DNA of 64,000 nucleotides from a virus (lineage: Duplodnaviria > Caudoviricetes): IMG/VR virus record IMGVR_UViG_3300027734_003164, positions 152,576 to 216,575 of that record. One strand, 5' to 3'. Under the pieces are notes generated by a model that was not told where the DNA came from, made no database searches, and worked only from the letters and a program-made list of their open reading frames with translations. The translations under genes and the position numbers were made by a program. Below, piece after piece: positions 872 to 63,624 of this stretch. The stretch's first letter is position 1. Each line of letters opens with the position of its first letter.

Positions 872-879
872 TATAAATA
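872..879 (-). promoter_or_regulatory. Late-gene motif TATTTATA (example of about 17 copies upstream of structural/late genes)
   Basis: Plus-strand TATAAATA at 872-879; on the coding strand TATTTATA-GGT-ATG. Full list in findings. Confidence 0.65.
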
Positions 880-885
880 CTTTGA

Positions 886-915
886 TTGATTTTTTCTTGA
901 ATTTTATTATATTTT
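886..915 (+). promoter_or_regulatory. Bacteroidota-type housekeeping promoter for the helicase gene
   Basis: TTG (886-888) - 19 nt - TATATTTT (908-915), matching -33 TTTG / -7 TAnnTTTG with one mismatch. Confidence 0.45.
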
Positions 916-924
916 ATATATACT

Positions 925-2688
925 ATGGAAGATTTTGTGCCTAAAACACCCGAATCAAAAGCCCTTTTAATATTAGATGATTACGAAGGGTCAAATAACT
1001 ATATCCTTAATTTAAAACACAAAAAAGAGAACAGTAAGTCTTTCGTACCTACAAGACCGCAGTCGGATTATATCAATAATTATAACACAACACAACCAAA
1101 AGTTGCAAAAAAATGGGTCAAACTTGATTCATATTTTGGTAAAAAACTGATGGAAGATAAGATGTATACTAAGGAACCTTCTGAAATATATGTTGAAAAG
1201 TTGTTGGTTGAAAAAGACAAGGCATATCATATTTGGGGTAAAATCTTTTCAGGTGAAACTTTACATGACTTTTGGATGCCAAAATCGGCATTACTAAAAG
1301 ATAATGAAGTTAAAAACATTTCTATTGATTATGGTAAGTACACTCATAGACCTCCTATGGAACATCAAAAAGAAGCAATTGAAAAATTAGTAAGAAATAA
1401 AAAGTTTATTCTGGCCGATGACATGGGTCTTGGTAAAACAACATCAACTATCATTGCTGCGTTAGAAACGGGAGCTAAAAAAGTTTTAATTGTGTGTCCC
1501 GCATCATTAAAAATAAACTGGCAAAGAGAAATTGCAAATTATTCAGATAGGTCTGTTTATATTGCGGAAGGTAAGAAATTTTCAGATGAACATGATTTTG
1601 TTATTGTGAACTACGACATCTTAAAAAATTTCCACGACATTAAAGAAAAGGATAAGTCAGAAATTATGAAAATTAATTTTGATTTAGTAATCATGGATGA
1701 AGCACATATGATTTCTAATCCACAAGCGCAAAGAACAAAAATTGCCAACGACATTGCAAGTAAATCAAATAGAGTTTGGTTATTATCAGGAACACCTATG
1801 ACCTCTAGACCTATGAATTATTATAATTTATTAAACCTTGTTGATAGTCCTGTGGCAATGAATTGGATGGCTTATGCTAAAAGATATTGTAATGGATTTC
1901 AATTTAGTGTTGGAAAAAGAAAAGTGTGGAATGTTACAGGGGCATCTAATCTTGACGAATTAAGAGAAAGAACCTCAACACACATTCTAAGAAGATTAAA
2001 AGAAGAAGTTTTAGATTTACCTGAAAAAATTATTACACCTGTTTATTTAAGGCTAAAATCAAAAGACTACGAAGAATTAATGGGTGAATATTTTGATTGG
2101 TATGACCAAAACCCTGAAGAGTCATCTTCACTTACAATTCAGTTTGGTAAACTAATGAAAGTAAGAAAAGTAATCGCACAAGAAAAAATTAATAACACAA
2201 TAGAGTTAGCGGAAAACATTATAGAACAAGGTAAAAAGGTTATTATATTTACAAATTTTACAGATACATTAAATCAAATCTATAATCACTTTGGTAAATC
2301 TGCGGTTTATTTAGATGGTAGTTGTTCCAAGTTTCACAGACAAAATGCGGTTGATGAGTTTCAAACAAATGATAAAATCAAAGTATTTGTTGGAAACTTG
2401 AAAGCCGCAGGTGTTGGTATTACTTTAACATCTGCCGAAGCCGTTATTATGAATGATTTATCTTTTGTTCCTGCTGAACATTCACAAGCAGAAGATAGGT
2501 CACATAGAATTGGTCAAAAAAATTCAACATCAGTTTATTACCCTCTTTTTGAAAATACAATAGAAGGTGCAATTTACGACATCTTAAATAGAAAAAAGAA
2601 AATTATTTCAACAGTAATGGGTGACGATATGTTTGATGATGCATCCACAATTGAAGAAATGTTAAATTTAATTTCTGGTAATCGATGA
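925..2688 (+). CDS. SNF2-family (SMARCAL1/HARP-like) helicase/translocase
   Basis: Motif I LADDMGLGKT, motif II DEAH, LSGTP, motif VI QAEDRSHRIGQ. Confidence 0.9.
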   Translation: MEDFVPKTPESKALLILDDYEGSNNYILNLKHKKENSKSFVPTRPQSDYINNYNTTQPKVAKKWVKLDSYFGKKLMEDKMYTKEPSEIYVEKLLVEKDKAYHIWGKIFSGETLHDFWMPKSALLKDNEVKNISIDYGKYTHRPPMEHQKEAIEKLVRNKKFILADDMGLGKTTSTIIAALETGAKKVLIVCPASLKINWQREIANYSDRSVYIAEGKKFSDEHDFVIVNYDILKNFHDIKEKDKSEIMKINFDLVIMDEAHMISNPQAQRTKIANDIASKSNRVWLLSGTPMTSRPMNYYNLLNLVDSPVAMNWMAYAKRYCNGFQFSVGKRKVWNVTGASNLDELRERTSTHILRRLKEEVLDLPEKIITPVYLRLKSKDYEELMGEYFDWYDQNPEESSSLTIQFGKLMKVRKVIAQEKINNTIELAENIIEQGKKVIIFTNFTDTLNQIYNHFGKSAVYLDGSCSKFHRQNAVDEFQTNDKIKVFVGNLKAAGVGITLTSAEAVIMNDLSFVPAEHSQAEDRSHRIGQKNSTSVYYPLFENTIEGAIYDILNRKKKIISTVMGDDMFDDASTIEEMLNLISGNR

Positions 2689-2700
2689 TATTTATATATC

Positions 2701-3420: not shown

Positions 3421-3444
3421 ATTATATTTATATAATAAAAACTT

Positions 3445-4573: not shown

Positions 4574-4906
4574 ATGTCAGTATTTAAATCTATTCCTTCA
4601 ATTAGAATAATTAATGGTAATAGCGTTGAAACATCAGATTCTGCAATAGTTTCAAACTCTTATTATGAAACCAATGGTGAATACGTCATTATTGTTTCGG
4701 GAGTTGAAAATTGTGAACTTTTGTTAAATTCATCAAATACCGACCACGTTGTTGTAAAATCTATGACGAATGTTTTAGTAAAGGGAGACTCATTAATTGA
4801 TGAGCAATATGAAGAAGTTGAATTAACTAAAGGCTCGTGCGTTGAGTTTAAAAAAGTCGGAAATTACTGGTATATATTATCTTCAGACGGATTAAAAAAC
4901 TCTTAG
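4574..4906 (+). CDS. Small beta-rich hypothetical protein, probably virion-associated
   Basis: 110-aa ORF co-oriented behind the neck gene; ends in a IDE..EVEL..GSCVEF..VGNYWYI pattern like small tail/head appendage domains. Confidence 0.5.
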   Translation: MSVFKSIPSIRIINGNSVETSDSAIVSNSYYETNGEYVIIVSGVENCELLLNSSNTDHVVVKSMTNVLVKGDSLIDEQYEEVELTKGSCVEFKKVGNYWYILSSDGLKNS

Positions 4907-7731
4907 TCGAAACTAAGAGCCATTAAATCCCCATCCACATCAAATTCAAAGTATTCATCAATATCCACCTTTTTTTGTTGTACGACAAACTCTTCCATTA
5001 ACTTTTTGTTGTTTTCAACCCAATCAACATCCACTAAATCAACAGTACCATCTAAATACATATAGTAAGGGTCAATACCTACGTTTTTCCAAAACGTTAA
5101 TTCCATGTCAGATAAAGTTAATACTTCCTCTAATGTATCTTGATGAGCCTCTTTCATTGGGTAACCGCGTACTAATTCAGTTTGAGACTTAGTAAAGATA
5201 GGTCTATCTTTTGGGTCTTCAATTAAAATGTCTTCTCTGATTTCAGGTCTATAAACAACAAGTAATGGTTCGATTCTTTTGTTAAATGCTGCCAAATATC
5301 TTGGAACATTATACTCACCCAATAAATCAGGATTCATTTCAATATCACGTTCATCAATCATATAACAATTCAAAACCAATTCATCTTTTTTCTTTTGAAC
5401 GTCTCCATGTGATTTTTTCTCACCATTATTAACATAGAAGATAGTATCACCAAGACCTGGATTTTTACCTTCTTTAATCAAAAGTTCCATATGCGCCTGA
5501 CGGGACATCATATTTCCTGCCTTTGTAGTTTTAGTAATGTGAACTTTGTAATCGTCTATTGATTGTTTTACCCGAGCTTTGTTTGCAATTTTTGCCAAAG
5601 GGATTTGTCTATTATAAAGTTTGTCCACATATTCATAGTAAAAATCTAAAAACTCACCACCCTTACCGTCTAACAACATTCTAAGCCCCTTATCCAAAAA
5701 TTCAGCAACATATGTTTGAAGTTTTTTAGATTTAATACTATTTCCTGTAAGTTTTACTTTACCCTTATCTGTAAGAAGTGCATAGTTTTTACGAGCCACA
5801 TTAATTGTTGATGGCCAAACACCGTCAATATCCAATCCCATTTCACCTCGTAAAAATAAATCATTGTATTCTGCAACATCCGCTTCTGCTCCAATATATT
5901 CCTTACCTTCTTTAACCAATCCGTTCAACCCCTTTCCAATATACTTATACTCTTCTCTATCTTGTGGTGTTTCGAAGTTTACACCATCCGTATCCATTAC
6001 GAGAGGAACATAACCTCTTTTCATAAAGAACATAATCATTTGACGTAGGTATTGTCTACCTGTACAAGTAATCTGTTCACCCATATCAATATCACCCCAC
6101 GGAAAAACTTGTGGTGCTGATAATGAACCAAAGAATGCGTTGATAAAGATTTTAATTGGTAATTGTTTTCTGTCGTAAGAAATCGCAAGTTTTGGGTCAA
6201 TAGATTTATATTCACTTGATAAGTTCTTGTATTTAATACGAGTATCACGGAAATACTTTAACATACTTTTCATTGCTCCTGTTACGTCACATTTAGGGAA
6301 TACGTCGTGAACCAACTGAATAGATGGGTATAGTGAAGAGTAGTCAAGTTTCAATACGTTTTTAGAGAACCCAACCTGTACTAAACGAGAAAGACCTCCT
6401 GTAAATTTTCTTTTTTCTAATTTTCTTGGTAATGCTAAGTTATGTTTATATGACCATGCTGCCATAATCATTTTCCATAATGTTGCAGTTCCCATAGTTG
6501 AAAGTCTTTCATATGTTGTTGGTACAAGTTTAGACAATAAGAAGTTTGCTTGATTAAACTGTTCATCAACTATCATCGTTTCATAAAGGTCATCGTCCAA
6601 GTAGTCCTCAATAATTTTTGAACCTGTAACTAATTTATAAACATCATCTCTTCTTTTACATATTTCATCTATTTTTGAATCAAATCCAACTTTCTTATAT
6701 GCTCCGTTTTCTTTGTTCATCCAATATTCAAGATTATCAAAATAAATTTTACCAATCTTATCCCCTTCAACATAAACACGATTTGGTTTTTCTGCTTCAA
6801 TAAACTTGGTAATATACTTCAAAGACCAACTTTTAATGTCTGAGTTGATTGCTTGAGCTCTACGAACCGCATGAGCAATATCAACAATATTATATCCCCA
6901 CATTTGAGTTTGAACGTATGGTTCCATTTCGTTCGCCAACTTTAGAATACCATCTTTTTGTTTTAGTGTATAATCAGGATGTAAGGTCTTGCAGATTTTT
7001 TTGATATTAACTTTTAATATTTCAGCTCTTTTTAGAATAAATGGGAAGTCAAAGAATGCTGAGTTGTAACCCCCAATCAAAGATGGTTTTAACTCATCAA
7101 TAGTCTTAAAGAAGTCGACAATCATTTGTCGTTCTTCATCTTCATTTTGTGCAGATAATAATTTTAGAAAACCACGATTGTCTTTCATCCCAATCAAGAA
7201 TATCTTACTTGTTTTAGGGTCAAGACCTGTGGTCTCAATATCGAATACAAACCTGTGGATTTCATCGTATTCGTCAAAACCTTTGAATAGTCTTTTACTT
7301 TTTTGAATTAAGTATTGTTCTACGGGTGATAATATTTGAATTGAATCTGTGTTGTCTCTACCCCATGGGTCTAATCCTCCACCTTTAAAGAAGTTTACAA
7401 GATTGGAGTATGACTTTGTTGTTTTAACCAAATACCTCAATCCGTTCTCTAAACGTTCATCATCGTGAGTATCAAGTTTTTCTATGATAATACCATTTTC
7501 ACTCATCGCACGTTTTTGTGCGTGTTTGTCGTTCTTGTAAAAGTTTTTACCTTTCAAGTCGCCAACCCAAGCAAATGGAATAAATGTGTCGGGGCGTAAT
7601 AATTTACCCTTAACAGGGTCTTGGATTACTTTATAAATTTTAGATGATTTGTAATCGTATTCGAGTGATACGATATATTTTTCGTCGTCTTCGCCTAATA
7701 AAAAGCGTTCAATTTCTTCTTGTGGAACCAT
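4903..7731 (-). CDS. polB: Family B DNA polymerase
   Basis: ExoI FDIET, region II DYSSLYPS, region III KIFINAFFG, region I MDTDG. 942 aa, no intein motifs seen. Confidence 0.95.
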   Translation of the reverse strand: MVPQEEIERFLLGEDDEKYIVSLEYDYKSSKIYKVIQDPVKGKLLRPDTFIPFAWVGDLKGKNFYKNDKHAQKRAMSENGIIIEKLDTHDDERLENGLRYLVKTTKSYSNLVNFFKGGGLDPWGRDNTDSIQILSPVEQYLIQKSKRLFKGFDEYDEIHRFVFDIETTGLDPKTSKIFLIGMKDNRGFLKLLSAQNEDEERQMIVDFFKTIDELKPSLIGGYNSAFFDFPFILKRAEILKVNIKKICKTLHPDYTLKQKDGILKLANEMEPYVQTQMWGYNIVDIAHAVRRAQAINSDIKSWSLKYITKFIEAEKPNRVYVEGDKIGKIYFDNLEYWMNKENGAYKKVGFDSKIDEICKRRDDVYKLVTGSKIIEDYLDDDLYETMIVDEQFNQANFLLSKLVPTTYERLSTMGTATLWKMIMAAWSYKHNLALPRKLEKRKFTGGLSRLVQVGFSKNVLKLDYSSLYPSIQLVHDVFPKCDVTGAMKSMLKYFRDTRIKYKNLSSEYKSIDPKLAISYDRKQLPIKIFINAFFGSLSAPQVFPWGDIDMGEQITCTGRQYLRQMIMFFMKRGYVPLVMDTDGVNFETPQDREEYKYIGKGLNGLVKEGKEYIGAEADVAEYNDLFLRGEMGLDIDGVWPSTINVARKNYALLTDKGKVKLTGNSIKSKKLQTYVAEFLDKGLRMLLDGKGGEFLDFYYEYVDKLYNRQIPLAKIANKARVKQSIDDYKVHITKTTKAGNMMSRQAHMELLIKEGKNPGLGDTIFYVNNGEKKSHGDVQKKKDELVLNCYMIDERDIEMNPDLLGEYNVPRYLAAFNKRIEPLLVVYRPEIREDILIEDPKDRPIFTKSQTELVRGYPMKEAHQDTLEEVLTLSDMELTFWKNVGIDPYYMYLDGTVDLVDVDWVENNKKLMEEFVVQQKKVDIDEYFEFDVDGDLMALSFD

Positions 7732-7794
7732 ATTTTATATTATTAATTTTGGGTTATTATTCTCACAAACTATGTTGTGGTTTCCCTTTTTTAA

Positions 7795-7826
7795 TAAATA
7801 TAAAAATGTCTTGTCTTAATGTCAAA
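7795..7826 (-). promoter_or_regulatory. Housekeeping-sigma promoter for polB
   Basis: Minus strand TTTGACA-N17-TATATTTA, also readable as TTTG-N20-TAnnTTTA. Confidence 0.6.
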
Positions 7827-10890: not shown

Positions 10891-10939
10891 TTTTATTAAT
10901 AAATACTTTAACAGAAGATATTTATATAAAAAGTATTAA

Positions 10940-43544: not shown

Positions 43545-43569
43545 ACGTATATTTATAAAATAAAATATT

Positions 43570-45181: not shown

Positions 45182-45203
45182 ACTAATAAATATTTGTTTA
45201 ATA

Positions 45204-48558: not shown

Positions 48559-48581
48559 AAAGGTCCCTTTTGGGGACCTTT
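48559..48581 (-). terminator. Intrinsic terminator
   Basis: AAAGGTCCC stem with short loop, followed by TTTTTATTTTT on the minus strand. Confidence 0.85.
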
Positions 48582-49535: not shown

Positions 49536-49555
49536 AATATTTTTATTAATAAATA

Positions 49556-50005
49556 TTATATTTCTTCTATTTGTTCTGATTTAGTTTTACTTAATGTGAA
49601 ATAAAGTGAATTTTTTAAATCATCCACATATATTGATTGAAAAATATTTTTTATTTTTGACCTTAAAAGAATTGATTTAAAATCATATGATTGGTTGTGA
49701 ATGAACAATGTAATTTCTAAATTCAAAAAACTTTTTTTATTTTTTTGTAACCCACTTGTTCTTAAATCTAAGTCAACTATACACTTTTTTTCAAAAATTT
49801 TGTGGTCAACAACTTCTAATAGTGTGTGTAGAATTTGTCTTTTTATGCTACCTGTAATTGATGTCCAATTACTGTAATCATCTTTTGGTTCGACCCATGT
49901 TTGTAAAATTAAATAAATTGATTTGAAATTTTTGGAATCGACTGTTCCGTACTGACATTTTGCATCATCAAAAATGTTTAATTTTGATGTTTTTCCTTTC
50001 TTCAT
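49556..50005 (-). CDS. Hypothetical protein
   Basis: 149-aa ORF with its own consensus sigma70 promoter. Confidence 0.7.
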   Translation of the reverse strand: MKKGKTSKLNIFDDAKCQYGTVDSKNFKSIYLILQTWVEPKDDYSNWTSITGSIKRQILHTLLEVVDHKIFEKKCIVDLDLRTSGLQKNKKSFLNLEITLFIHNQSYDFKSILLRSKIKNIFQSIYVDDLKNSLYFTLSKTKSEQIEEI

Positions 50006-50035
50006 TTTTTATATGTAAGAGGTTTATTTTTTTTA

Positions 50036-50064
50036 ATTATAACAATTATAAAAGAATTTGTCAA
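50036..50064 (-). promoter_or_regulatory. Perfect TTGACA-N17-TATAAT promoter
   Basis: Plus-strand TGTCAA 50059-50064 and ATTATA 50036-50041, 17-nt spacer. Confidence 0.7.
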
Positions 50065-50109
50065 AACATAAAAAAATTATTATATTTATATTAAAAAAAG
50101 GAAAAAAAT

Positions 50110-50301
50110 ATGATTATTATCGAAGTTAAAAAAAATAATATTGAGCAAGCATTAAAACAATACAAACTCAAGGTATACAAAACAAAACAACTTGAACATT
50201 TAAGAGACAGACAAGAATTTGAGAAAAAGTCCGTTAAGTCGAGAAAGAAAAAAATAAAGGCGGTTTATATACAAAAAATTAAAAATCAACTTTCTTCTTG
50301 A
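50110..50301 (+). CDS. rpsU: Phage-encoded ribosomal protein bS21
   Basis: MIIIEVK.NNIEQALKQYK.K...LR.RQEFEKKSV..R...KAVYIQ aligns by eye with Flavobacterium-type bS21. Confidence 0.9.
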   Translation: MIIIEVKKNNIEQALKQYKLKVYKTKQLEHLRDRQEFEKKSVKSRKKKIKAVYIQKIKNQLSS

Positions 50302-51271: not shown

Positions 51272-51293
51272 ATCTATTTTTTTAGATAAATAC

Positions 51294-53120
51294 TTACTTG
51301 TTTAATAATTTATTTATTTTGTCATCAATTTCATTGATAGATAATCTACCTTTTGATAAATCTAATGTATTATCTCTATCAAAAAGCGTGTTTTCCAAAA
51401 TTAAATTTAAATCATTTCTATTAAAATTTTCAGGAGTTACTCCCCCACCTTCTGCGGGTGGTGGTGGCGGTGGTGTCCCACCTCCATCTTCAGGAGGCAT
51501 TCCTCCTTCTTCAGGTGATGCTCCACCTTCAGGTGCCGCTCCTCCTTCAGCAGGCGCTCCACCTGCGGCGGCGTCTTTTTTACCATAAAGTGAATCAAGA
51601 GTATCAAATAATCCCGTTTTAGTAATAACTTCTGCCGTTTTACCAAGTTCTGCAGATACTGCTCTTTCAATTCTTTGTTGTTGTAAATCAAGTCTAATTT
51701 CATCATCAGAAAATCCAAGAATATGTTTTTTGGCCCATGATGCCGATACAGGGGCAACACTATCTTGAATTGGTGCAACCGCATCTTTAAATAATGTTAT
51801 TTTTTCTTTCCATAATTCTATACCTAATAAATCAGATTGTTTTGATGGGTTGGTTAATCCAAGTGTGAAATTGGTTAATTCATCTTCGAACCCTAAAAGA
51901 AACAAATGAATGATTGCAATTTTATTTAGTTCTGCAATCATAGATTTTTGAATCCTATTAATTGTTCTAGCAAATCTAATATCTAATAGTGATAAATTTT
52001 TACCATCACCGACTGCCTCTTCAAATCCTAAATACGCTTTAGGGATTCTTAATGCTGTAACAAGTTTCTTTTGGATATATTCAATATCCGCGATTTCTGC
52101 TAAGTTTTTAGCCCCATCTAATGTTTCAATAGGATTAGTTGCTGCTGGGTCTCTAACAGGGATAAAATAATCTTGGTCTACTGCCATTTGATTAAATCTC
52201 ATGTCAACATTTCCTGTTTTTTGGTCTACAATTTGGTCTCTTTTGAATTTATTAGCAACTCTTTGTACGTAAGCATCCACATCTTTGTCATCCATATTAC
52301 CCACAAATACTTTAAACACCCGTCTTTCAGGTGCTCTTGATACGCGGTAAATTAACATCGCATCTTCAGATAAAAGTAATTGTTTCCAAATACGACGAGC
52401 CTTTTCTAACATTGATGTTCCATATGGTAATTTTCTATCATCTCCTAATATTCTAAAGTGACCTATCTCCCATGTGTTAAATTCCATGTTTTTTTCTTTC
52501 CATGTGAATTTAAGAGCGTCATTTTCAATTTCTGATGAATATTTTTCAGGTTGGAATTTCATTCCTTTTTCTAATCTTTCTATTTGGATATTAGGTAATT
52601 GTTGACAACCTACAACTCCTCTTTCAGGGTCTAATTTTAAATAAACAAAATTATCACCAAACTTACAAGTGTTTCTAATCCACATTGGTAAGTTTGTATT
52701 AATATCCAATTTGTTATTAAATAAATCGGTCAAAACTGATTTAATTCTTTTTGATTCAGAATAAATTTGTAAAATGTGCCCGTCTTTATCAGGTGTTGTC
52801 GACTCTTCAGCATAAATGTCTAATGCTGCTGAAATTTCGGGAGTATATTCCATGGATTCATAATCATAATATGATGCCATTCTTGTTGGTTCATAATAAA
52901 CCGCCTGTTGATAAAGATTACTTTCTACTTTTTGCCATTGCTGACCAATATACATGGTCTGCTGAGCTTGAAGTTTTTCTTTTTCAAATTCTTGTTTGTT
53001 TGGTGTTTTTAATAATTCTTTTTTATCGAATTTAAAAACCGGTGATTGTTGGTCAATTGTTGAATTAGGTCCAAAAACTCTACCTAATCTTTGCCAAACT
53101 GTATATTTTTCTTCTGCCAT
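51294..53120 (-). CDS. Portal protein (T4 gp20-like)
   Basis: YESMEYTPEISAALDIYAEE, YRVSRAPERRVF, QDYFIPVR, IETLDGAKNL, ALRIPKAYL. Confidence 0.93.
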   Translation of the reverse strand: MAEEKYTVWQRLGRVFGPNSTIDQQSPVFKFDKKELLKTPNKQEFEKEKLQAQQTMYIGQQWQKVESNLYQQAVYYEPTRMASYYDYESMEYTPEISAALDIYAEESTTPDKDGHILQIYSESKRIKSVLTDLFNNKLDINTNLPMWIRNTCKFGDNFVYLKLDPERGVVGCQQLPNIQIERLEKGMKFQPEKYSSEIENDALKFTWKEKNMEFNTWEIGHFRILGDDRKLPYGTSMLEKARRIWKQLLLSEDAMLIYRVSRAPERRVFKVFVGNMDDKDVDAYVQRVANKFKRDQIVDQKTGNVDMRFNQMAVDQDYFIPVRDPAATNPIETLDGAKNLAEIADIEYIQKKLVTALRIPKAYLGFEEAVGDGKNLSLLDIRFARTINRIQKSMIAELNKIAIIHLFLLGFEDELTNFTLGLTNPSKQSDLLGIELWKEKITLFKDAVAPIQDSVAPVSASWAKKHILGFSDDEIRLDLQQQRIERAVSAELGKTAEVITKTGLFDTLDSLYGKKDAAAGGAPAEGGAAPEGGASPEEGGMPPEDGGGTPPPPPPAEGGGVTPENFNRNDLNLILENTLFDRDNTLDLSKGRLSINEIDDKINKLLNK

Positions 53121-53153: not shown

Positions 53154-54929
53154 CTAAACTCTTCTTCCTCCAAATAACCAAGAATAATTTTCATAGTCAC
53201 TTTTAGTTGGTCCAGTATATGGTCTATTATTATACATATCATTTTGAACCGGAATTGAAGGATTAAAATTTTGTGACGAATCTTTGAACATAGTTTTGTC
53301 TGTTGTCCAAGATTCTATCATTGCTTTTGCTTGTTCTGTCGCTTTTTCCAATTTAGAAAAAGATGACTCCCCTACATAAATCGCCATAGCCATTGCCATA
53401 ATTAAATCGTCGTGTTGGCCTTTTTGGTGGTCAGGTCTTCCGTTCACATAAACAAAAGTATTTAATTCGTTAAAAAGTCTTTGGGACTTAACTGCGAACC
53501 CAAACCTTAAAGCTTCTTCAAACGCTTGGACAATTAAAACTCGTTTTGAGTTAAAATTTATTCCTGGTATTTTATCTTCTTGTTTTGGGTCCCATTTCCA
53601 TTTGTCCGCGGGATTTACACCATCAACATACAAATTTTTATATCCAAGTTCTTGAAGTTTTCTGGAAGTTGCAACACCCATACCACCTGTAATATCGGTT
53701 ACAATAAATGCGTTATACATTATTGCCCACTTATATGCTATTTCCGCTACAATATCAGGTGGAACTTTTGCAATATATTCTAAGACTTGTTCTCTTTCAT
53801 CAAAATCAATTATAATAAAAGTTGTAAAATCTTCACTGTCCCCTCTCGAAACGTCCATTCCCATAATATATCTGTGACCAACAATCGGTTCTTTCCATTG
53901 CCAAAGAACACCACCCATAAATTTGTTTTCAGGTTCTCTAATATGGTTTTCTTTTATTTTTTTCATAGTTTCAGGAGGAATAACATTATCCCCTGACCCT
54001 AAAAAGTTACATTCTAACTCTTGTGATATTTTACGTTTATCAAATTTCAATTTTTTTGACATCGATTCAAACCACGACGAGTATGGTTTGTAACCGTTTT
54101 CAATTTTTTGTTTAATATCCTCAAAATCTCTGTCTGATACTTTTATATTTGAATAATCGATAGTTATTTCATCATCCTTATAGTCAGTTCTATTTAACAT
54201 GTAATGTATTATATCATCAACCTTTATTAGTTTTAAGTCTTTGGAATATCTAGGGTCTCTAAACCAAAACATCTCAGTAATTTTGAAGTCATTCATTCCT
54301 TTTATCGCCTGAGCATAAATTGAGTAGTAAATTGGGTCAAATCCGTTGGGTGTTGAAATAACAATTACTTTACCCCCTGTTGAAAGGGATGCCATACACG
54401 CTGACCAAAAATCTTCATCAGCATCAATGTATGCCGCCTCATCAAAAATAAGAATAGTTGGTGTATACCCACGAAGAGCATCTTTTGAAGTTGCAACCGC
54501 CTTAACTTCACAACCGTTTGTTAATTTAAAATGTCTTGCTGCATTTTTTTCAGAAGAAAATCCAACACCCAACCAGTTAGGCCATTGCTCAACAAATGAA
54601 CGAACTTTGTTTGCCATTTCAACGGCAGTATCAAGTTTGTTTGCAATAATTAGAATTTTTTCAGGTTTTGATTTTTTTGCAAAAACTAATCTTTTTGATG
54701 CCCATGCAGATGTTACTGTTGATACACCAGCTTGTCGATATTTGAGTGCTATATTTTCTTCAGCAGTATCGTAGTCTTTTACCAAAGTGACTTGGTCATT
54801 AAATAGTTCTAGCGGTACGTATTTTGATTGTGTGTTGTCGTAAGTTTGCAAATATGTTTTTAGAGCGTATGGTGTATCATTTACACATTTAGCATATTCT
54901 AATAATATTTGTTCTTTTGAAAGTGACAT
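53154..54929 (-). CDS. terL: Terminase large subunit (T4 gp17-like)
   Basis: KYRQAGVST, Walker B IFDEAAY, ISTPNG, nuclease GMDVSRG and HDDLIMA. Confidence 0.95.
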   Translation of the reverse strand: MSLSKEQILLEYAKCVNDTPYALKTYLQTYDNTQSKYVPLELFNDQVTLVKDYDTAEENIALKYRQAGVSTVTSAWASKRLVFAKKSKPEKILIIANKLDTAVEMANKVRSFVEQWPNWLGVGFSSEKNAARHFKLTNGCEVKAVATSKDALRGYTPTILIFDEAAYIDADEDFWSACMASLSTGGKVIVISTPNGFDPIYYSIYAQAIKGMNDFKITEMFWFRDPRYSKDLKLIKVDDIIHYMLNRTDYKDDEITIDYSNIKVSDRDFEDIKQKIENGYKPYSSWFESMSKKLKFDKRKISQELECNFLGSGDNVIPPETMKKIKENHIREPENKFMGGVLWQWKEPIVGHRYIMGMDVSRGDSEDFTTFIIIDFDEREQVLEYIAKVPPDIVAEIAYKWAIMYNAFIVTDITGGMGVATSRKLQELGYKNLYVDGVNPADKWKWDPKQEDKIPGINFNSKRVLIVQAFEEALRFGFAVKSQRLFNELNTFVYVNGRPDHQKGQHDDLIMAMAMAIYVGESSFSKLEKATEQAKAMIESWTTDKTMFKDSSQNFNPSIPVQNDMYNNRPYTGPTKSDYENYSWLFGGRRV

Positions 54930-55571: not shown

Positions 55572-55971
55572 TTAGCATCAAATTTTTTTCCCAATTTAAT
55601 ACGACATCTCTTTCGTATAATTTACTTTCAACATTTTCAATACTTTCTCCGTATTGAAAAACTAATCGTTTCTTTTTATATACAATTATTTCATCCGAAT
55701 CCGACTTTTCCCATCCTAATGAAATAACACCATCAACGGCATCATAAACACAAAAAAAGTCTGAATTTTGAACTAATTCTAATTCTATATCTGAGTTTTT
55801 TAAAATACCAACTTTTTTAATAAATTCAATTTTTGGTGGTTGTGGTCGTCCAGATGCTGGCTCAATATCCCAATCTTCACCATATGCGTCATCAATATCT
55901 GAAAAAATAAATTCATAGATATTGTCTCCTCTAAAGTTTGGACCTAACTCATTTATATAAATCAAATTCAT
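55552..55971 (-). CDS. Hypothetical protein
   Basis: 139-aa ORF in the late operon. Confidence 0.7.
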   Translation of the reverse strand: MNLIYINELGPNFRGDNIYEFIFSDIDDAYGEDWDIEPASGRPQPPKIEFIKKVGILKNSDIELELVQNSDFFCVYDAVDGVISLGWEKSDSDEIIVYKKKRLVFQYGESIENVESKLYERDVVLNWEKNLMLNETHEL

Positions 55972-57311
55972 ATAATGTTTCCTCTTGTGTCTATTTTAAT
56001 TTGTTTACCTTTTTTATTAAAAATTAAATTATCTAAATTTGTTTTACCTACAAATTGTGCTCCTTCAGATAAAAGTCTATTTGCTCTTTCCAACTGACGA
56101 CTAGTTTCTGATAAATTTTGTAACTCTTGTTTTACTTTTATCTGTGTTAATTTGTTTTTAATATAATCTTTTTGTTTTTTTTCTTCTAAAATTGGAGCTT
56201 CTTCTTTTGTTACTACAAAATATTTTTTCAAAACATTTTCAACTCTTGATTCTCCAAAAACATTTTCTGTTGGTTCTTGTGGTGTTGGTTCTTCACCACC
56301 CATAGGTGCTCCTCCCATTGGTTCTGCTCCAAATTCCTCACCTCCAAACTCATCACCACCAAAATTGACATCTTCTTCACCACTAAAATCTAAACTTTCA
56401 GGACCTTCATCACCGTACATATCAATTTCTTCAAATTTAGATAAAATGTCTTCTTTATCATCCTCGTCCAACTTTTCTAAATCTAAAGCCGATAAAACCA
56501 TGTTTATAACATATTTAATATCCTGTGAATCCAATCCGTCTTCATCTTGATTGTTATATGCTCTTAATTTTTGTGATAATTTACCTGTAAGTCTTTGGAT
56601 AGTTTTGAAACCACCGCCTTCTTCAGACTCTCCTCCCATTGGTTCTCCGCCCATTGGTTCTCCTCCCATTGGTTCTCCACCCATAGGCTCACCACCCATT
56701 GGTTCACCTCCCATTGGTTCTCCACCCATCATTTCACCTCCCATTGGTTCTCCACCCATCATTTCATCACCCATAGGCTCACCACCCATTGGTTCTCCAC
56801 CCATCATTTCTCCACCTTCTTCAGGTGCTGGTGGTGCAGGAGTTTCTTCAGGAGCAGGTGATGCTTCAGGTGCGGGTGCAGGAGCGGGTGCCGCGTCAGG
56901 TGTTGGTTCCGTTGCGGGTTTAGGCGTTTTTAAAACGAATTTTTTTTTTGAAGCGGTTTGCTCGCCAATTAAAGGAATCTCCTCGTCATTCTCATGAATG
57001 CGATTTAATTCTTTAGCGTGAAGATTCAACTTTTTCATCGCCTGAGAATACGAATCAAAATATTTTCTTTGTCTAATTGGGTCTGAATAATCTAAAACAG
57101 ATTCATTAATCCCTTTTTTAATTATATAACCTAACTTTTCTTTAACAATACCGTAAGTGTAACCATCAGCTAATTGAATGGTATAGTTCAAAGTTTCGTT
57201 TTCGTTAAGTTGTGATTTTGGTTTTTCATTATAATGCGCAATTTCTAAGATACGTCTAATTTTGTCCATACCTTCTAATTTTTCACTTCCAAGTGGTTTC
57301 AAATCTGCCAT
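55968..57311 (-). CDS. Acidic Pro/Gly/Met-rich probable head/core protein
   Basis: 447 aa, GGEPM repeats, several xxE sites, late motif upstream. Confidence 0.65.
   Translation of the reverse strand: MADLKPLGSEKLEGMDKIRRILEIAHYNEKPKSQLNENETLNYTIQLADGYTYGIVKEKLGYIIKKGINESVLDYSDPIRQRKYFDSYSQAMKKLNLHAKELNRIHENDEEIPLIGEQTASKKKFVLKTPKPATEPTPDAAPAPAPAPEASPAPEETPAPPAPEEGGEMMGGEPMGGEPMGDEMMGGEPMGGEMMGGEPMGGEPMGGEPMGGEPMGGEPMGGEPMGGESEEGGGFKTIQRLTGKLSQKLRAYNNQDEDGLDSQDIKYVINMVLSALDLEKLDEDDKEDILSKFEEIDMYGDEGPESLDFSGEEDVNFGGDEFGGEEFGAEPMGGAPMGGEEPTPQEPTENVFGESRVENVLKKYFVVTKEEAPILEEKKQKDYIKNKLTQIKVKQELQNLSETSRQLERANRLLSEGAQFVGKTNLDNLIFNKKGKQIKIDTRGNII
56628..56816 (-). repeat. 15-bp tandem repeat encoding GGEPM/GGEMM (about 12 copies)
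   Basis: ccacccattggttct-type units in the DNA; GGEPM runs in the translation. Confidence 0.9.
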
Positions 57312-57404
57312 TTTGTTTTTTCTTTATATGTTATTTTAGTATAAATATCCAAAAAGATAGTTTAACTCAATAATAAATATATTGTTAATAGATAAATTGA
57401 CTAA

Positions 57405-58178
57405 TTATTCAATATTTAAGTTTTCTAATGATAATTTTTTATCAGTAATCTTGTTTTTGAAGTCTTCAAGTTTTTTTATATATCCCGTTCTTCTTAAAAA
57501 CTTAAACACCAAATTTTCATATGAATACTCACCTTCTTTTGTTAATCCACAAGTTCTGTATTTTCTTAACTTTTCTTTGTATTTCTTAACAAGGTCAATG
57601 GCGTCTTTTAAATCTTCATCTTCTGCGTTTTCCAAAACACCATCTATTATATCCATCCATTGTTGGGCTTTTTCTTTAATTTTTTTCTCATCAACTTCAA
57701 AATTTTCTTTTTCTGGTTTTCTAATCCATGTATCAGAAACCAAAGAATAAGACCCCATACTTTTCTCTTTTTCGTTTGAGTCTTGAATAAAAACCTCAAC
57801 TTCATAACCTTTAATTCTAATGTCATGAGATGCGTTAAACAATGTTTTTTTTAGGTGAAAAAGTTCTTCATATAATTCTTTATTTTCACCAGCCTCATTA
57901 AAATCATATAATAAATGAACGTCAAAGTCAGAAAACTCAGACCAATTATAACCAGTTAAAGAACCAATTAGTATAATGTCTTGAATAAAAATGTCTTGGT
58001 CGATTGTTTTTAAAAAAACGTCAGCAACTTGTAAAAGTTTTTTTCTAATTTCAGGTTTTAATTTATAGAATTGGGCGTCTTTGTCACCCATATATTTTTC
58101 ATTGGGTAATTCCCAAACTTCGGGATTAAGTTTGTCTTGTAAATAAAAGCTATTTATAACTTTTTTAAATTCCTTCAT
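57405..58178 (-). CDS. Pol-beta superfamily nucleotidyltransferase
   Basis: IILIGSLTGYNWSEFSDFDVH (GS..DxD) and a third acidic residue in YEVEVF. Start placed at ATG 58178, 3 nt after TATTTATT, which avoids overlap with KTSC. Confidence 0.8.
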   Translation of the reverse strand: MKEFKKVINSFYLQDKLNPEVWELPNEKYMGDKDAQFYKLKPEIRKKLLQVADVFLKTIDQDIFIQDIILIGSLTGYNWSEFSDFDVHLLYDFNEAGENKELYEELFHLKKTLFNASHDIRIKGYEVEVFIQDSNEKEKSMGSYSLVSDTWIRKPEKENFEVDEKKIKEKAQQWMDIIDGVLENAEDEDLKDAIDLVKKYKEKLRKYRTCGLTKEGEYSYENLVFKFLRRTGYIKKLEDFKNKITDKKLSLENLNIE

Positions 58179-58206
58179 ATTAATAAATACATTATCAATA
58201 TGATTT

Positions 58207-58449
58207 TCAAAGTTTTTTGTATTTGAATTTTTTTGATATGTTTTGATTGAAATATTTTCCTTGAGAATCTGATAATCTAAATTGAGAATATATTGAATGG
58301 GGGACTTCTTCATATTCATATAACATTTCATTGTTGAAAGTTATTTTTAATGTTTTATTTTCAATATCATACTCACTTCTTTTTAAATTAGAAGATGTTA
58401 TTTCACAAATAATTTTGTTTCCTTCTATGTCTGTTCTAGTTATTGCCAT
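58207..58449 (-). CDS. KTSC-domain protein
   Basis: SSNL...YD...L.ITF....YEY..VP...Y..F..S.S.GKYFNQNI. Confidence 0.9.
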   Translation of the reverse strand: MAITRTDIEGNKIICEITSSNLKRSEYDIENKTLKITFNNEMLYEYEEVPHSIYSQFRLSDSQGKYFNQNISKKFKYKKL

Positions 58450-58744: not shown

Positions 58745-58764
58745 AACTATAAATATACGAAACA

Positions 58765-58788
58765 AAAAATCCACCCGAAGGTGGATTT
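58765..58788 (-). terminator. Intrinsic terminator after the UVR gene
   Basis: AAATCCACC-TTCG-GGTGGATTT followed by Ts on the minus strand (cUUCGg tetraloop). Confidence 0.9.
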
Positions 58789-59322: not shown

Positions 59323-61359
59323 ATGATTGAATCAGCAGACAACAACGAAAAAGACAAAGGAAAAAAAACTGAAACCGCGGGTAAAACACCCGTGTTGGAT
59401 AATTTTTCAAGAGACTTAATAAAAGCCGCGGAAGAGGGTAAGTTGGACCCTATTATTGGAAGAGAACAAGAAATTAATAGGATTGCACAAATTCTATCAA
59501 GAAGGAAAAAAAATAACCCAATTATTATTGGTGAACCAGGTTGTGGAAAAACTGCAATTGTAGAAGGATTGGCCAAAAAAATATTTGAGGGTGATTGTCC
59601 TCAGAATTTAGTTAGTAAAAGAATAGTTTCTTTAGATTTAAATTCTGTGGTTGCAGGAACAAAGTATAGAGGTCAGTTTGAAGAAAGAATGAAAGTTATA
59701 ATTGAAGAATTATATGCAAATCCTGACATAATTATTTTTATAGATGAAATCCATACTATGATTGGTGCTGGAAACGCATCGGGTTCCATGGATGCGTCAA
59801 ATATATTTAAACCCGCATTGTCAAGAGGAGAAATTCAATGTATTGGGGCAACAACATTAGAAGAATATAGAAAAAATATTGAAAAAGATGGGGCACTTGA
59901 AAGAAGGTTTCAAAAAATTGTTGTAGACCCATCAACTAAAGAAGAAACTTTAGAAATACTAAAACAATCCAAAGACCGTTACGAAAAACACCATAAAGTT
60001 AGATATAGTGAAGATATTTTAAAACTATGTGTTGAATTGGCCGATAGATATATTACCGACAGAGAATTTCCCGACAAGGCGTTTGATATACTTGATGAGG
60101 TTGGGGCAAGAAGTCAGGTGGAAATCAAATTACCTGAATCTATTGAAAAATTAAAAAAAGAAGCTCAAGAAATAAAAGAACAAAAAATAGAAGTTATTAA
60201 TAAACAAAAGTATGAAGAGGCTGCAAATTTAAGAGATAGAGAAAGAAAAGTTTTATCAGAACTTCAAAAAGAAAAGGAAGATTTTGAAAAAAACAGAGAC
60301 CTTTACCGAAAAGAAGTTACAGAAGAAATTGTTTATGATGTTACTTCTTTGATGACAAAAATTCCTATTAATAAAATTACCACCGATGAATCAATTCAAT
60401 TAGCATCATTAAATGAAGTATTAAATACAAGAGTAATTGGTCAAAATGAAGCGGTTTCCAAAATTGCAAGAGCAATACAAAGAAATAAAGTTGGTTTAAA
60501 TGACCCAAAAAAACCAATATTTAGTGGATTATTAATTGGTAATTCAGGTGTTGGTAAAACTGAATTGGCAAAACAGTTGGCAAAACATATGTTTAATAGT
60601 GAAGACGCACTTATTAGATTGGATATGAGTGAATTTTCAGATAAAATAGCAACATCAAAATTAACAGGGACATCACCAGGATATGTTGGGTATGAAGACG
60701 GTTCACCATTTTTGAACAAAATTAAAAACAAACCTTATTCTGTTATTTTATTGGATGAAATAGAAAAGGCTCACCCAGAAATTTTTAATGTATTTTTACA
60801 AATGTTAGATGAAGGGTTTTTAACAGATGGTCACGGTAGAAAAATTAACTTTAAAAATTGTATTATTCTTATGACATCAAATGTTGGAACAAGAGTGGTT
60901 CAACAATTTGGTACAGGTGTTGGGTTCTCAACATCACATAAAGAAGAAACAAAAGATGAAGAAATAAAATCTTTATTGGAAAAAGAACTTTTCAAAAAGT
61001 TTGCACCTGAGTTTATCAACAGATTTGATGATATTGTATACTTTAAAGACTTGAATGACAATGATTTGATGAAAATTTTGAATTTAGAACTTGAAAAATT
61101 ATATACAAGAGTTTCTAACCTTGAATTTAATGTTGAAGTTGATGAATCACTAAAAAATCACTTAATTAAAGTGGGTACTGATACTAGATTTGGAGCTCGT
61201 ATTTTGAAAAGAACGGTTCAAAAGTGGGTAGATGATGCAATTACGGAAAAAATACTTTCAGACAAACCAGAAAAAAACTCCACATTCTTACTGTCGTATG
61301 ATGAAAAAAATAATAAAACAGAAGTTAAAATAAAAAAACCAACAAAACGAAAGAAATAA
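59323..61359 (+). CDS. clpC: ClpC-type AAA+ unfoldase lacking the N-terminal domain
   Basis: Walker A GEPGCGKT and GNSGVGKT, Walker B FIDEIH and LLDEIEK, pore loops KYRG and GYVG, UVR middle domain, ClpP-docking VGF loop. Confidence 0.92.
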   Translation: MIESADNNEKDKGKKTETAGKTPVLDNFSRDLIKAAEEGKLDPIIGREQEINRIAQILSRRKKNNPIIIGEPGCGKTAIVEGLAKKIFEGDCPQNLVSKRIVSLDLNSVVAGTKYRGQFEERMKVIIEELYANPDIIIFIDEIHTMIGAGNASGSMDASNIFKPALSRGEIQCIGATTLEEYRKNIEKDGALERRFQKIVVDPSTKEETLEILKQSKDRYEKHHKVRYSEDILKLCVELADRYITDREFPDKAFDILDEVGARSQVEIKLPESIEKLKKEAQEIKEQKIEVINKQKYEEAANLRDRERKVLSELQKEKEDFEKNRDLYRKEVTEEIVYDVTSLMTKIPINKITTDESIQLASLNEVLNTRVIGQNEAVSKIARAIQRNKVGLNDPKKPIFSGLLIGNSGVGKTELAKQLAKHMFNSEDALIRLDMSEFSDKIATSKLTGTSPGYVGYEDGSPFLNKIKNKPYSVILLDEIEKAHPEIFNVFLQMLDEGFLTDGHGRKINFKNCIILMTSNVGTRVVQQFGTGVGFSTSHKEETKDEEIKSLLEKELFKKFAPEFINRFDDIVYFKDLNDNDLMKILNLELEKLYTRVSNLEFNVEVDESLKNHLIKVGTDTRFGARILKRTVQKWVDDAITEKILSDKPEKNSTFLLSYDEKNNKTEVKIKKPTKRKK

Positions 61360-61360
61360 T

Positions 61361-61391
61361 TTTGCAAATGTTGAAAACTTTTGTACATTTG
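61361..61391 (+). promoter_or_regulatory. Canonical Bacteroidota sigma70 promoter for the peptidase
   Basis: TTTG (61361-61364) - 19 nt - TACATTTG (61384-61391). Confidence 0.8.
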
Positions 61392-61405
61392 TAAAAAACA
61401 AAATA

Positions 61406-62467
61406 ATGAACCTACAAAAATTCAAAGAACTCCTTTCAGTACCATCGAAAACATATCAAGAAGAAGATATGGTAGAACATATTTGTGATGAGTTGGAAAA
61501 AATTCATGGAGTTACGTTTTATCGTGACAATATGATGAACATATATGCAACAAAGGGGATATTAGAAGAAGGTGAATTTTATCCCATGTTTATTGCTCAC
61601 ACTGATACGGTTCACAACAAAATAGATAAGATTATTGTTAAAGAAGAAAAATTAAAACGACCACACACTTTTGGTAAAAATTTTGACGATACTCTTGTTG
61701 ACGTATTAAAAGCATACGACGTTAATAATTTACCAACAGGTATTGGGGGTGATGACAAATGTGGCATTTTTATTTGTTTAGAATTACTTAAACAATTAGA
61801 CAAAGTAAAAATTGGTTTATTTGTGAGTGAAGAAACAGGTTGTCACGGTTCATCAAAATGTGATGAAACTTTTTTGCAAGATGTAGGTTATATCACACAA
61901 TACGATGCTCCTGGCAACCATTTAATTACCGAGATTTGCTCAGGTGTTCGTTTATTTGAACGGGATAGTGAATTTTTTACAAAAACATCAAAAGTTATTA
62001 CCGAATCTTTTGGAAATGAAATGTTAGTTCAATCACACCCTTATACTGATATTTCACAGTTAAAGAAAAAAATTGATGTATCTTGCATCAACATGTCTTG
62101 TGGTTATTACAATATGCATTCACCACAAGAGTTCATTTCGATTGAAGATGTGAAATGTGCAATTGAAGCAGGAAAAAATATGGTTAAAGAGTTGGGTCAT
62201 AAAAAATATGAATATCAATATAAACCAATAGTTTATACACCAACAACAATCATGAACTCATTTGCGGAAGGGTTTGATGATGATTTAGATTTTTTTGAAG
62301 TACAAGAAATAGAAAGTCATCATCGTTTACAAACTATTGACGTATATGAGGAAAAAGACGGAATCACACTAACCGATGTTTATGATGATGGGTTTATGTT
62401 TATCCCTGATGAGGATTTAGAAAATTTGTATGAAATTATTAAAGAAAGATTAATTAAAAAATATTAA
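61406..62467 (+). CDS. Zn-dependent peptidase, M20/M28/M42 clan
   Basis: AHTDTV, GGDDKCG, SEETG, QYDAP, GYYNMHS ligand set. Confidence 0.85.
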   Translation: MNLQKFKELLSVPSKTYQEEDMVEHICDELEKIHGVTFYRDNMMNIYATKGILEEGEFYPMFIAHTDTVHNKIDKIIVKEEKLKRPHTFGKNFDDTLVDVLKAYDVNNLPTGIGGDDKCGIFICLELLKQLDKVKIGLFVSEETGCHGSSKCDETFLQDVGYITQYDAPGNHLITEICSGVRLFERDSEFFTKTSKVITESFGNEMLVQSHPYTDISQLKKKIDVSCINMSCGYYNMHSPQEFISIEDVKCAIEAGKNMVKELGHKKYEYQYKPIVYTPTTIMNSFAEGFDDDLDFFEVQEIESHHRLQTIDVYEEKDGITLTDVYDDGFMFIPDEDLENLYEIIKERLIKKY

Positions 62468-63609
62468 TCAACATAAGGTATTAAAGGTTCGGTATTCAAC
62501 ATATTTAAAATATATTTTAATGGTGCCGAACCTTTTTTGAGTGGATTCCACGAACTTCTTTTACGTATACCATAATTAACCATCAAACTATCTTTATCGA
62601 CATTTAATATTCTAATTTCATAGTCTCCTGGTATTTGTTTAAATGTGTTAAATCCAATTTTATCATTTATAATATTAATTATTTGAAAGTATTTTTTCGT
62701 TTTTTCTTTTCCACCTTCTTCAATCATATTTTCCAATTCTTCTTCTAATCCTTCCAAAACTCTTACACTTCTTTTATTAAATTCGTTATAAAAAACATCA
62801 GCATCCCAAGCCTCATATTGAATTTCATAATATTCAGGAACGTGTGTTCTAACTTCTTTTTCTATCGCCTTAAATAATATATCCATCAAGCAATCGTCAG
62901 GTGTTCCATATCTTACAAATAACATAATTGCATCCCCCCAATTTAAAAAATACTTCCAATAACAATTACTTGATTGGTTTTCGATTCCAACAACAGATAA
63001 ACAATTACAATATATATCATCAATATATTTAGGTACTGCTGCATCTGTTGCCATTTCACTTGCGTATGCATACGCCTCAATTAAATCATCTTTTGTTCTA
63101 TTACTTACAGATTCAATAAAGTCTAATATCTTTTCTGACTCTTTACCTTGTTTCCATTTGATTTGGTCATTAACCACTTCAAATTCTTTTAATAAGTTTG
63201 GTTGATATATTTTTAATATGTTATATAAAACTTTTAATGATTCACCCTTCAAATTTTCTAACACATATCCTTCGTCCCAATCTTCACTAGCTCTATCCCA
63301 ATAATCCCATTCCCATGAACCTCTACGCATAGAATCTAAGTATCCTGCTTCATACCAACCGTCACTACCTTCATCACCATAAGTTTCTTTGAAAAAAAAT
63401 CTTAAATAGTCTTCTAATCCTTCATGGAAAGTAAAAGTTATACCATCATAACTTACTTCATAAAAGTCTGAATAATCTTCACCATCACATTCATCAAAAT
63501 CAGTATAATAAGGGTCAATCTTTTTTTTGTTAATAGCAAGAATTTTTTGATAGTCAGTTAATTCAACATCATCTTCCTCTTCTTCAAAAATTTTTGAAAA
63601 TTTATTCAT
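62464..63609 (-). CDS. Acidic hypothetical late protein
   Basis: 381-aa ORF; late motif 5 nt upstream; N-terminal KIFE followed by an acidic run. Confidence 0.7.
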   Translation of the reverse strand: MNKFSKIFEEEEDDVELTDYQKILAINKKKIDPYYTDFDECDGEDYSDFYEVSYDGITFTFHEGLEDYLRFFFKETYGDEGSDGWYEAGYLDSMRRGSWEWDYWDRASEDWDEGYVLENLKGESLKVLYNILKIYQPNLLKEFEVVNDQIKWKQGKESEKILDFIESVSNRTKDDLIEAYAYASEMATDAAVPKYIDDIYCNCLSVVGIENQSSNCYWKYFLNWGDAIMLFVRYGTPDDCLMDILFKAIEKEVRTHVPEYYEIQYEAWDADVFYNEFNKRSVRVLEGLEEELENMIEEGGKEKTKKYFQIINIINDKIGFNTFKQIPGDYEIRILNVDKDSLMVNYGIRKRSSWNPLKKGSAPLKYILNMLNTEPLIPYVD

Positions 63610-63624
63610 ATATTTATAAATATA

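Follow-up and report, generated by a model that had tools for sequence, protein, structure and literature searches.

The 64,000-nucleotide (nt) window analysed here (positions 152,576 to 216,575 of the IMG/VR virus record IMGVR_UViG_3300027734_003164, Caudoviricetes) has a G+C content of ~30% and carries, on its minus strand, a T4-like structural module comprising major capsid, prohead protease, portal and large terminase genes. Our subject is a short motif, TATTTAT, that stands upstream of late and structural genes in this stretch, together with a phage-encoded sigma factor that is the candidate for its reader. A phage gene for ribosomal protein bS21 (Pfam PF01165, E 9e-12) lies on the opposite strand within the terminase-portal-protease-capsid block, which is the gene order of the freshwater bS21 phages of Bacteroidetes (Chen et al. 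2022, PMC9723584). Phages of this bS21 group are abundant in lakes and have Bacteroidota as hosts (PMC9723584). A Shine-Dalgarno (SD)-like core precedes just 4-6% of the genes and the leaders are A-rich, which fits a Bacteroidota host (PMC6847099). A megablast search of the window against the phage collection gave no match, and the nearest annotated capsid relatives (41-45% identity) belong to an uncultured 484-kb phage, Microcystis phage Mel-JY01 and Flavobacterium phage vB_FspM_immuto (hereafter immuto). IMG/VR holds hundreds of contigs, of up to 219 kb, with portal genes 69-99% identical.

The initial annotation of the window listed 17 copies of the motif, which we counted either as the 8-mer TATTTATH or as the heptamer TATTTAT; the distance from heptamer to ATG is that of the 8-mer plus 1. 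Every one of these 8-mers was found at its coordinates on the coding strand of the downstream gene, and the distances to ATG agree with the table of open reading frames (ORFs) and with the upstream sequences (Table 1). Its remark that no copy stands ahead of the glycan-operon genes (11649-37119) also held. Intergenic copies nearly all point at the downstream gene, the two exceptions being a minus-strand copy at 40424 and the palindrome partner at 63611, and the short divergent gaps 869-924 and 10891-10939 contain one or two outward-facing copies. The copy at 48498-48505 heads a unit made up of 47099-48463 and the major capsid gene, the latter having no motif of its own.

The abundance of the motif in the window is unremarkable: TATTTATH occurs 43 times against 48.6 ± 7.7 expected, and TATTTAT, with 52 copies, is the rarest of 21 heptamers of the same composition. 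Upstream of start codons, 17 copies of TATTTAT lie on the sense strand within 45 nt of 67 ATGs, compared with 2.4 ± 1.5 in dinucleotide shuffles of the same segments (maximum 8; 0 of 2000 shuffles reach 17). Enrichment over shuffled DNA, a check that the initial annotation had named, is hence present ahead of genes but not across the whole window. The share of all window copies that lie upstream of ATGs is 33% for TATTTAT and 0-13% for 20 same-composition heptamers. In three large relatives, the 9-mer likewise showed no genome-wide enrichment over a reversed control.

Placement of the motif is conserved among relatives. Across 80 related loci, 388 of 953 copies are on the sense strand within 60 nt upstream of ATGs, and in alignments of orthologues the heptamer is invariant, with intergenic flanks that vary and proteins that diverge to 30-50% identity. 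Counts for the families that bear the motif are given in Table 1; those without it in the window are also without it in relatives, namely terminase (1/38), the 54936 family (0/32), the 50286 family (0/19) and the 59323 family (0/14). A 219.5-kb relative, G002, carries a sense copy upstream of 61 of its 213 genes (62 copies vs 8.8 ± 3.1 in shuffles), which include most of its very large, presumably structural genes, and TATTTAT is its top upstream 7-mer (p 5e-55). The motif is likewise enriched upstream of genes in the cultured Flavobacterium phage immuto (33 vs 6.7 ± 2.5) and in Mel-JY01 (22 vs 6.5 ± 2.5), and was not found in the RM378 neighbourhood. The motif is thus a real, class-specific signal of late and structural genes, and it very probably acts at the promoter.

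Aligned sites define an extended consensus RTATTTATW, in which a purine precedes the heptamer and an A or T follows it, with a run of A from about position 12. Counted from the first T, positions 12-15 are 59-79% A in every spacing class, and G follows the heptamer in 0-1% of cases. No -35-like partner is conserved upstream across 61 largely independent sites; weak periodic A/T tracts in the pooled orthologue alignment were traced to redundant orthologues and set aside.

Table 1. Motif copies and selected genes of the window. Motif coordinates and distances are those of the 8-mer; short class, heptamer 4-6 nt from ATG.
Feature	Position	Strand	Distance to ATG	Remarks
Motif, short class	872-879	-	3 nt to ATG 868	gene 353-868
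Motif, short class	2689-2696	+	4 nt to ATG 2701	motif and spacer fill the 12-nt intergenic gap
Motif	3425-3432	+	12 nt to ATG 3445	protein with head-tail adaptor-like PHROG hit
Motif, extra copy	7793-7800	-	61 nt to ATG 7731	upstream of DNA polymerase; missed in initial annotation
Motif	10898-10905	-	7 nt to ATG 10890	898-amino-acid gene; one of two outward-facing copies in 49-bp divergent gap
Motif	10919-10926	+	13 nt to ATG 10940	other outward-facing copy of the 49-bp gap
Motif, short class	37871-37878	+	4 nt to ATG 37883	alternative ORF start TTG at 37877
Motif	42041-42048	+	14 nt to ATG 42063	6/6 orthologues
Motif	43550-43557	+	12 nt to ATG 43570	43570 family, 14/14 orthologues
Motif, short class	45185-45192	-	3 nt to ATG 45181	directly after terminator hairpin 45205-45232 behind major capsid gene
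Motif	48498-48505	-	34 nt to ATG 48463	terminator 48559-48581 upstream; 47099 family, 23/23 orthologues
Motif	49548-49555	-	12 nt to ATG 49535	prohead protease; 44/44 orthologues
Motif	50083-50090	+	19 nt to ATG 50110	phage bS21; 36/39 orthologues
Motif	51285-51292	-	13 nt to ATG 51271	50534 family, 50/50 orthologues, beginning 1-3 nt past portal stop codon
Motif	57340-57347	-	28 nt to ATG 57311	gene 55968-57311
Motif, second copy	57372-57379	-		upstream of 55968-57311; missed in initial annotation
Motif, short class	58182-58189	-	3 nt to ATG 58178	start of the 57405 gene
Motif, short class	58748-58755	-	3 nt to ATG 58744	directly after hairpin terminator 58767-58788; 58436 family, 11/13 orthologues, identical spacing
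Motif, short class	63615-63622	-	5 nt to ATG 63609	
Motif, extra copy	63611-63618	+		palindromic overlap with 63615-63622 (-); missed in initial annotation
Phage sigma factor	37119-37862	+		247 amino acids; candidate motif reader
DNA polymerase	4903-7731	-		ATG 7731
Major capsid	45255-47072	-		
Prohead protease	48825-49535	-		
Phage ribosomal protein bS21	50110-50301	+		motif-bearing gene
Portal	51294-53120	-		
Large terminase	53154-54929	-		

The candidate reader of the motif is encoded by a gene that has no motif before its own start, the gene immediately downstream having one. By itself, the protein gave no Pfam or PHROGs hit and nothing meaningful with phmmer against the PDB, and the Foldseek matches, nearly all of them to sigma factors, had E-values that were all >0.001. 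An exhaustive search returned 1145 relatives; among 81 that were aligned, 33 match Pfam Sigma70_r2 (PF04542; best E 4e-7). Against solved structures, the family profile found region 2 of SigA (E 0.0065) and, weakly, T4 gp55 (7d7c_F, E 0.25). In the AlphaFold model (mean predicted local distance difference test score, pLDDT, 90.9), residues 24-128 superpose on sigma region 2 structures at 2.5-3.1 Å (Z 9-9.5), with values of 2.5-2.7 Å for region 2 of sigma-E and RpoS. Profile matches and predicted structure indicate that the protein is a member of the sigma-70 family with a region 2 fold. The initial annotation had called it gp55-like; its family is sigma-70, and the resemblance to gp55 is weak but specific. 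An hhalign comparison with T4 gp55 (E 1.7e-4, probability 49.5%, 114 columns) pairs gp55 F86 and Y97, residues of the pockets that hold flipped non-template bases (PMC7892883), with F95 and Y106, the latter nearly invariant. Three large relatives each carry a single copy of the sigma gene, and family members occur in immuto (E 3.7e-37; NC_055915, 78174-78842) and Mel-JY01 (E 1.9e-31).

The position of the motif relative to transcription units also points to a promoter. An intrinsic terminator lies directly upstream of 5 of the 22 short-class sites of G002 (heptamer 4-6 nt from ATG; see below), compared with 1/39 in the long class and 4/152 among genes without a motif; transcripts from upstream end at such terminators, and at most ~25 nt therefore remain for a new promoter. 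RNA read maps for the clade show that the structural block is not a single operon, the capsid gene sharing transcripts with the gene upstream of it and the protease gene with the one downstream (PMC9723584). The units predicted from the motif are those that were mapped: copies stand before 47099-48463 and the protease gene, and none before the capsid gene or 48603-48812. Five lake RNA runs contain parts of the window, four of which were compared, as assembled contigs that showed no pile-ups of starts or ends and whose ends (e.g. 48474) cannot be taken for RNA ends. The capsid gene is strongly represented in them, as is a region resembling a transfer-messenger RNA (tmRNA; see below), and contig depth drops ~37-fold (run X3) across the terminator behind the capsid gene.

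We propose that host RNA polymerase carrying the phage sigma factor probably reads the motif on the non-template strand, RTATTTATW being the -10-type core of the clade's late promoters. Apart from TT in place of the central AA, the motif is the T4 late box, and we therefore read the system as a diverged gp55-type late system. That RTATTTATW, with core TATTTAT and no -35 partner, is a promoter element we regard as highly likely. The fuller account, in which this core is read by the phage sigma and the short class is leaderless, is in our judgement probable.

The distance between motif and ATG ranges from 4 to >40 nt and is rigid only in the shortest class. This short class comprises 7 of the 17 window sites and 22 of the 61 in G002 (4 nt, 11; 5 nt, 9; 6 nt, 2), in which the next peak lies at 12-14 nt and just 6/61 spacings fall between 7 and 11 nt. 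In the 58436 family the heptamer is 4 nt from ATG in 11/11 cases; across orthologues with differing flanks, an exact 4-nt spacing is kept in 11/11 and ~25/29 cases. Protein similarity begins at residues 1-5 counted from the short-class ATG; together with a spacing that is retained despite differing spacers, this identifies the short-class ATG as the real start. The longest ORF at 57405-58331 (-) overcalls its gene by 51 codons: orthologues begin at residue 52, and we therefore take ATG 58178, directly behind the motif, as the true start.

The base preceding ATG is a pyrimidine in 22/22 short-class genes and in 95/191 others (Fisher 7e-7). The pyrimidine is common to the classes of 4, 5 and 6 nt and is hence tied to the ATG, not to the motif. 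Bacterial RNA polymerase prefers start sites of the form Y(-1)R(+1), a preference that, taken with the run of A at positions 12-15 in the long class, points to initiation ~5 nt after the heptamer. Transcription would then begin ~5 nt (range 5-7) past the heptamer, usually at an A. Where ATG is at least 12 nt downstream, this would yield short A-rich leaders of at least 8 nt, suited to a Bacteroidota host that does not use SD sequences; where it is 4-6 nt downstream, transcription would start at the A of ATG or within 1-2 nt of it, giving a leaderless mRNA. These genes are arranged as leaderless genes are, with no SD and a -10-type element that keeps a fixed short distance to the start codon. 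For the 3-5 nt cases, the near-leaderless interpretation that the initial annotation offered is the best one, with indirect support from the pyrimidine at -1 in 22/22, and we lean towards a truly leaderless short class.

Several points weigh against this account. The gap between spacing classes is not absolute, as spacings of 8-11 nt occur (6/61). The start sites are inferred from sequence, metatranscriptome contigs being unable to show 5' ends. The link between sigma and motif is correlative and extends over three lineages only: LR756508, a more distant relative, has a 25%-identical sigma yet no sense copy of the motif in the 41.5 kb around its capsid gene. The phage protein is a weak homologue of gp55 (probability 49.5%), exceeds it by 60 residues and has an additional helical domain at its C-terminus. 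Leaderless mRNAs are, to our knowledge, not common in Bacteroidota. In Flavobacterium johnsoniae, 87% of leaders exceed 10 nt (PMC6847099), although its -7 element ends 4-5 nt before the start site, which is compatible with the short class (PMC6847099). The geometry is also demanding. At T4 P23 the box occupies -13 to -6, and transcription begins on the 6th nt beyond it (PMC7892883), which agrees with the point made in the initial annotation that a T4-type arrangement would start inside ATG: with the flipped A at -12, ATGs at the commonest spacing would have their G as the start. For the A to be the start, the flipped A must sit at -10, which is 2 nt closer than in T4 and 1 nt closer than for sigma-70. 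Either the geometry is 1-2 nt tighter than that of T4, or the leaderless part of the model is wrong.

The second of these options is the strongest competitor, and we consider it unlikely. It keeps the late promoter but has the short class start in or after ATG, with translation from read-through RNA or from a downstream codon and with the tight spacing a product of genome compaction. The P23 geometry, the alignment of the phage sigma with the gp55 recognition pocket and the rarity of leaderless mRNAs in F. johnsoniae all speak for it. It sits poorly with the exact 4-nt spacing retained amid differing flanks, with protein similarity that starts at residues 1-5 of that very ATG, and with a pyrimidine-purine step that tracks the ATG in 22/22 genes. 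Read-through is also not the main source of RNA for these genes, since 5/22 short-class sites lie directly after terminators, and the drop in contig depth past the capsid terminator (X3) tells against it as well.

A different reader for the motif is conceivable, namely a phage late activator that binds it and works with the host primary sigma, the motif then not being the -10 element of a phage sigma. Co-occurrence is all that ties sigma to motif, LR756508 has a related sigma without the motif, and TTT is common to the motif and to the host -7 element TAnnTTTG; even so we judge this improbable. The sites contain no host-type -7 or -33 element, G follows the heptamer in 0-1%, and the next candidate position for G-5 is an invariant A, the host element having an invariant G there. 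A site 4 nt from ATG leaves no room downstream for a separate core promoter, and the motif persists in a phage whose listed host is cyanobacterial and has a different primary sigma.

The initial annotation also raised the possibility that the motif acts on mRNA. It would then be either a processing site at which long late transcripts are cut or an AU-rich ribosome-recruiting element, possibly for ribosomes carrying the phage bS21. The motif sits in sense orientation 5' of genes, the host makes no use of SD sequences, and bS21 is co-regulated with the motif-bearing genes. Yet a distance of 4 to >40 nt is unlike a ribosome-positioning signal, and in Mel-JY01, a phage with SD-like cores at 29% of its genes, ordinary GGAG-type SD leaders come between the motif and ATGs 17-44 nt downstream. 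As the motif is kept while the mode of initiation changes, it is not a ribosome-binding signal. Sites after terminators or in divergent gaps of 49-56 bp would seldom be transcribed from upstream, a dedicated sigma co-occurs with the motif, the T4 late box is matched at 6/8 positions, and seven invariant bases are unlike loose RNase E-type sites. An RNA-level role is accordingly disfavoured, and we give it still less weight than a late activator. Chance AT-rich matches without function, with which only the unexceptional whole-window count agrees, are dismissed as already refuted by the shuffled controls and by the invariance of the heptamer at orthologous positions in up to 50 diverged contigs.

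Some copies and relatives deserve separate mention. The DNA polymerase gene has a copy (7793-7800) although it would be expected to be early or middle; perhaps it is a late promoter for this replication gene, with a precedent in T4, and perhaps it serves nothing. In relatives, the portal gene is preceded at 62-66 nt by a copy that lies within the end of the terminase gene (39/43), and the window has none there. Mel-JY01, whose listed host is cyanobacterial, shares the motif, the sigma family and the placement of bS21 within the structural block, yet has SD-type leaders. The short class is also scarcer in immuto (4/36) and absent in Mel-JY01 (0/22), and thus appears to be a speciality of the bS21 clade.

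Host-type promoters are found in the window as well. Upstream of 49556-50005 (-), the divergent neighbour of bS21, a perfect TTGACA-N17-TATAAT is present (50006-50109). Its orthologues conserve only TTTGACA, TAnnTTT ~20 nt later and an AATAAAC box, a host-type -33/-7 arrangement, and an E. coli-type promoter was rejected on these grounds; bS21 and its neighbour therefore use different promoter classes. A textbook Bacteroidota promoter (TTTG, 19 nt, TACATTTG) at 61357-61391 (+), 14 nt before ATG 61406, is unlike the late motif and lends support to a Bacteroidota host. A host-type -7 box, TATATTTG, at 63648-63655 is upstream of a stretch without ORFs, 63693-64000 (+), that is GC-richer, has a tmRNA-like beginning and is truncated by the end of the window. 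Rfam and ARAGORN gave no hits on the window, this stretch being missed because the window end cuts it. It is among the deepest-covered parts in four lake metatranscriptomes (contig depth 1237 in X3). Within the major capsid gene, RNA contigs of two lake runs omit 38-440 nt in the region 46019-46740 (e.g. 46298 to 46739, depth 375, X3), and tblastn capsid matches are split into two pieces. We take the region to be a probable insertion domain, variable between co-occurring relatives; an intron is the other possibility.

In sum, a large phage clade carries ahead of its late genes a real, conserved element of promoter type, for which a variant of the T4-type late promoter/sigma system is the best class; the unusual feature is a large set of predicted leaderless late genes. 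No earlier description of the motif, of Flavobacterium phage late promoters or of leaderless late genes in Bacteroidetes phages was found in the literature searched, and the words promoter, motif, sigma and leaderless are all absent from the paper on the clade (PMC9723584). Gene regulation in these bS21 phages had so far gone undescribed; with a defined late promoter, temporal class and transcription units become readable from sequence in thousands of uncultured contigs. The comparison with T4 further suggests how such a late system could have changed its tuning: two bases replaced in the box, and a sigma that has diverged. Were the short class truly leaderless, roughly a third of the late genes that bear the motif, in a phage of an SD-less phylum, would bypass 30S-type initiation, and the puzzling phage bS21 would be given a concrete, testable job. 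One could go further and imagine a private channel for late expression, in which the phage sigma makes leaderless or short A-leader mRNAs and the co-regulated phage bS21 replaces host bS21, so that ribosomes favour these mRNAs over leadered host messages and a single motif couples transcriptional to translational specificity; this extension is speculative, and we think it doubtful. Motif and sigma are also present in a cultured pair, vB_FspM_immuto and Flavobacterium sp. LMO8, which opens these predictions to bench work.

The closest known system is that of the T4 late promoters, TATAAATA, which are served by gp55, gp33 and the gp45 clamp. Both systems use an 8-bp AT-rich -10-type box without a -35 element at the head of late and structural genes, here those of a T4-like myovirus, and both have a phage sigma with a region 2 fold, the gp55 pocket residues F86 and Y97 aligning with conserved F95 and Y106. 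The initial annotation described the motif as the reverse complement of TATAAATA, which is literally true but misleading: in the same orientation the motif is identical to the T4 box at 6/8 positions, the difference being TT in place of the central AA. A reading as an antisense T4 box was rejected, since in immuto and Mel-JY01 too, whose structural arrays are one-stranded, the copies face the downstream gene. Nor is the exact T4 word enriched in sense (TATAAAT before 7 genes, with 12 copies antisense). Unlike in T4, the sigma has 247 rather than 185 residues, with an additional C-terminal helical domain and weak homology, and the Bacteroidota host makes no use of SD sequences. A T4 late transcript starts 6 nt past the box and has an SD leader, whereas a third of the boxes here are 3-5 nt from ATG (7/17 in the window, 22/61 in G002).

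The primary-sigma promoters of Bacteroidota share with the motif an AT-rich element with a TTT core and A-rich leaders without SD, and their 4-5 nt between element and start would, in the short class, put the start at or beside the A of ATG. In F. johnsoniae these promoters consist of -33 TTTG and -7 TAnnTTTG, with T-12, A-11, T-8, T-7, T-6 and G-5 nearly invariant (PMC6847099). The motif lacks the invariant G-5, its sixth base always being A, does not conserve T-12, and has an extra invariant AT on its 3' side; having neither the G nor T-12, it was rejected as a host -7 element. Poxvirus late promoters (TAAATG, with poly(A) heads added by slippage) resemble the short class in that the element abuts or overlaps the start codon and leaves almost no templated leader, but polymerase and sequence are unrelated, and the 4-5 nt before ATG contain no run of A or T for slippage. 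It is the long-class start regions that are A runs, unlike the short-class spacers. The leaderless genes of Mycobacterium, Streptomyces and Deinococcus, and lambda cI transcribed from PRM, likewise have a -10 element at a fixed short distance, no SD and ATG at the predicted +1. The set described here, predicted from sequence, differs from them in being tied to one phage temporal class and to a phage-specific promoter, in a phylum in which leaderless mRNAs are uncommon.

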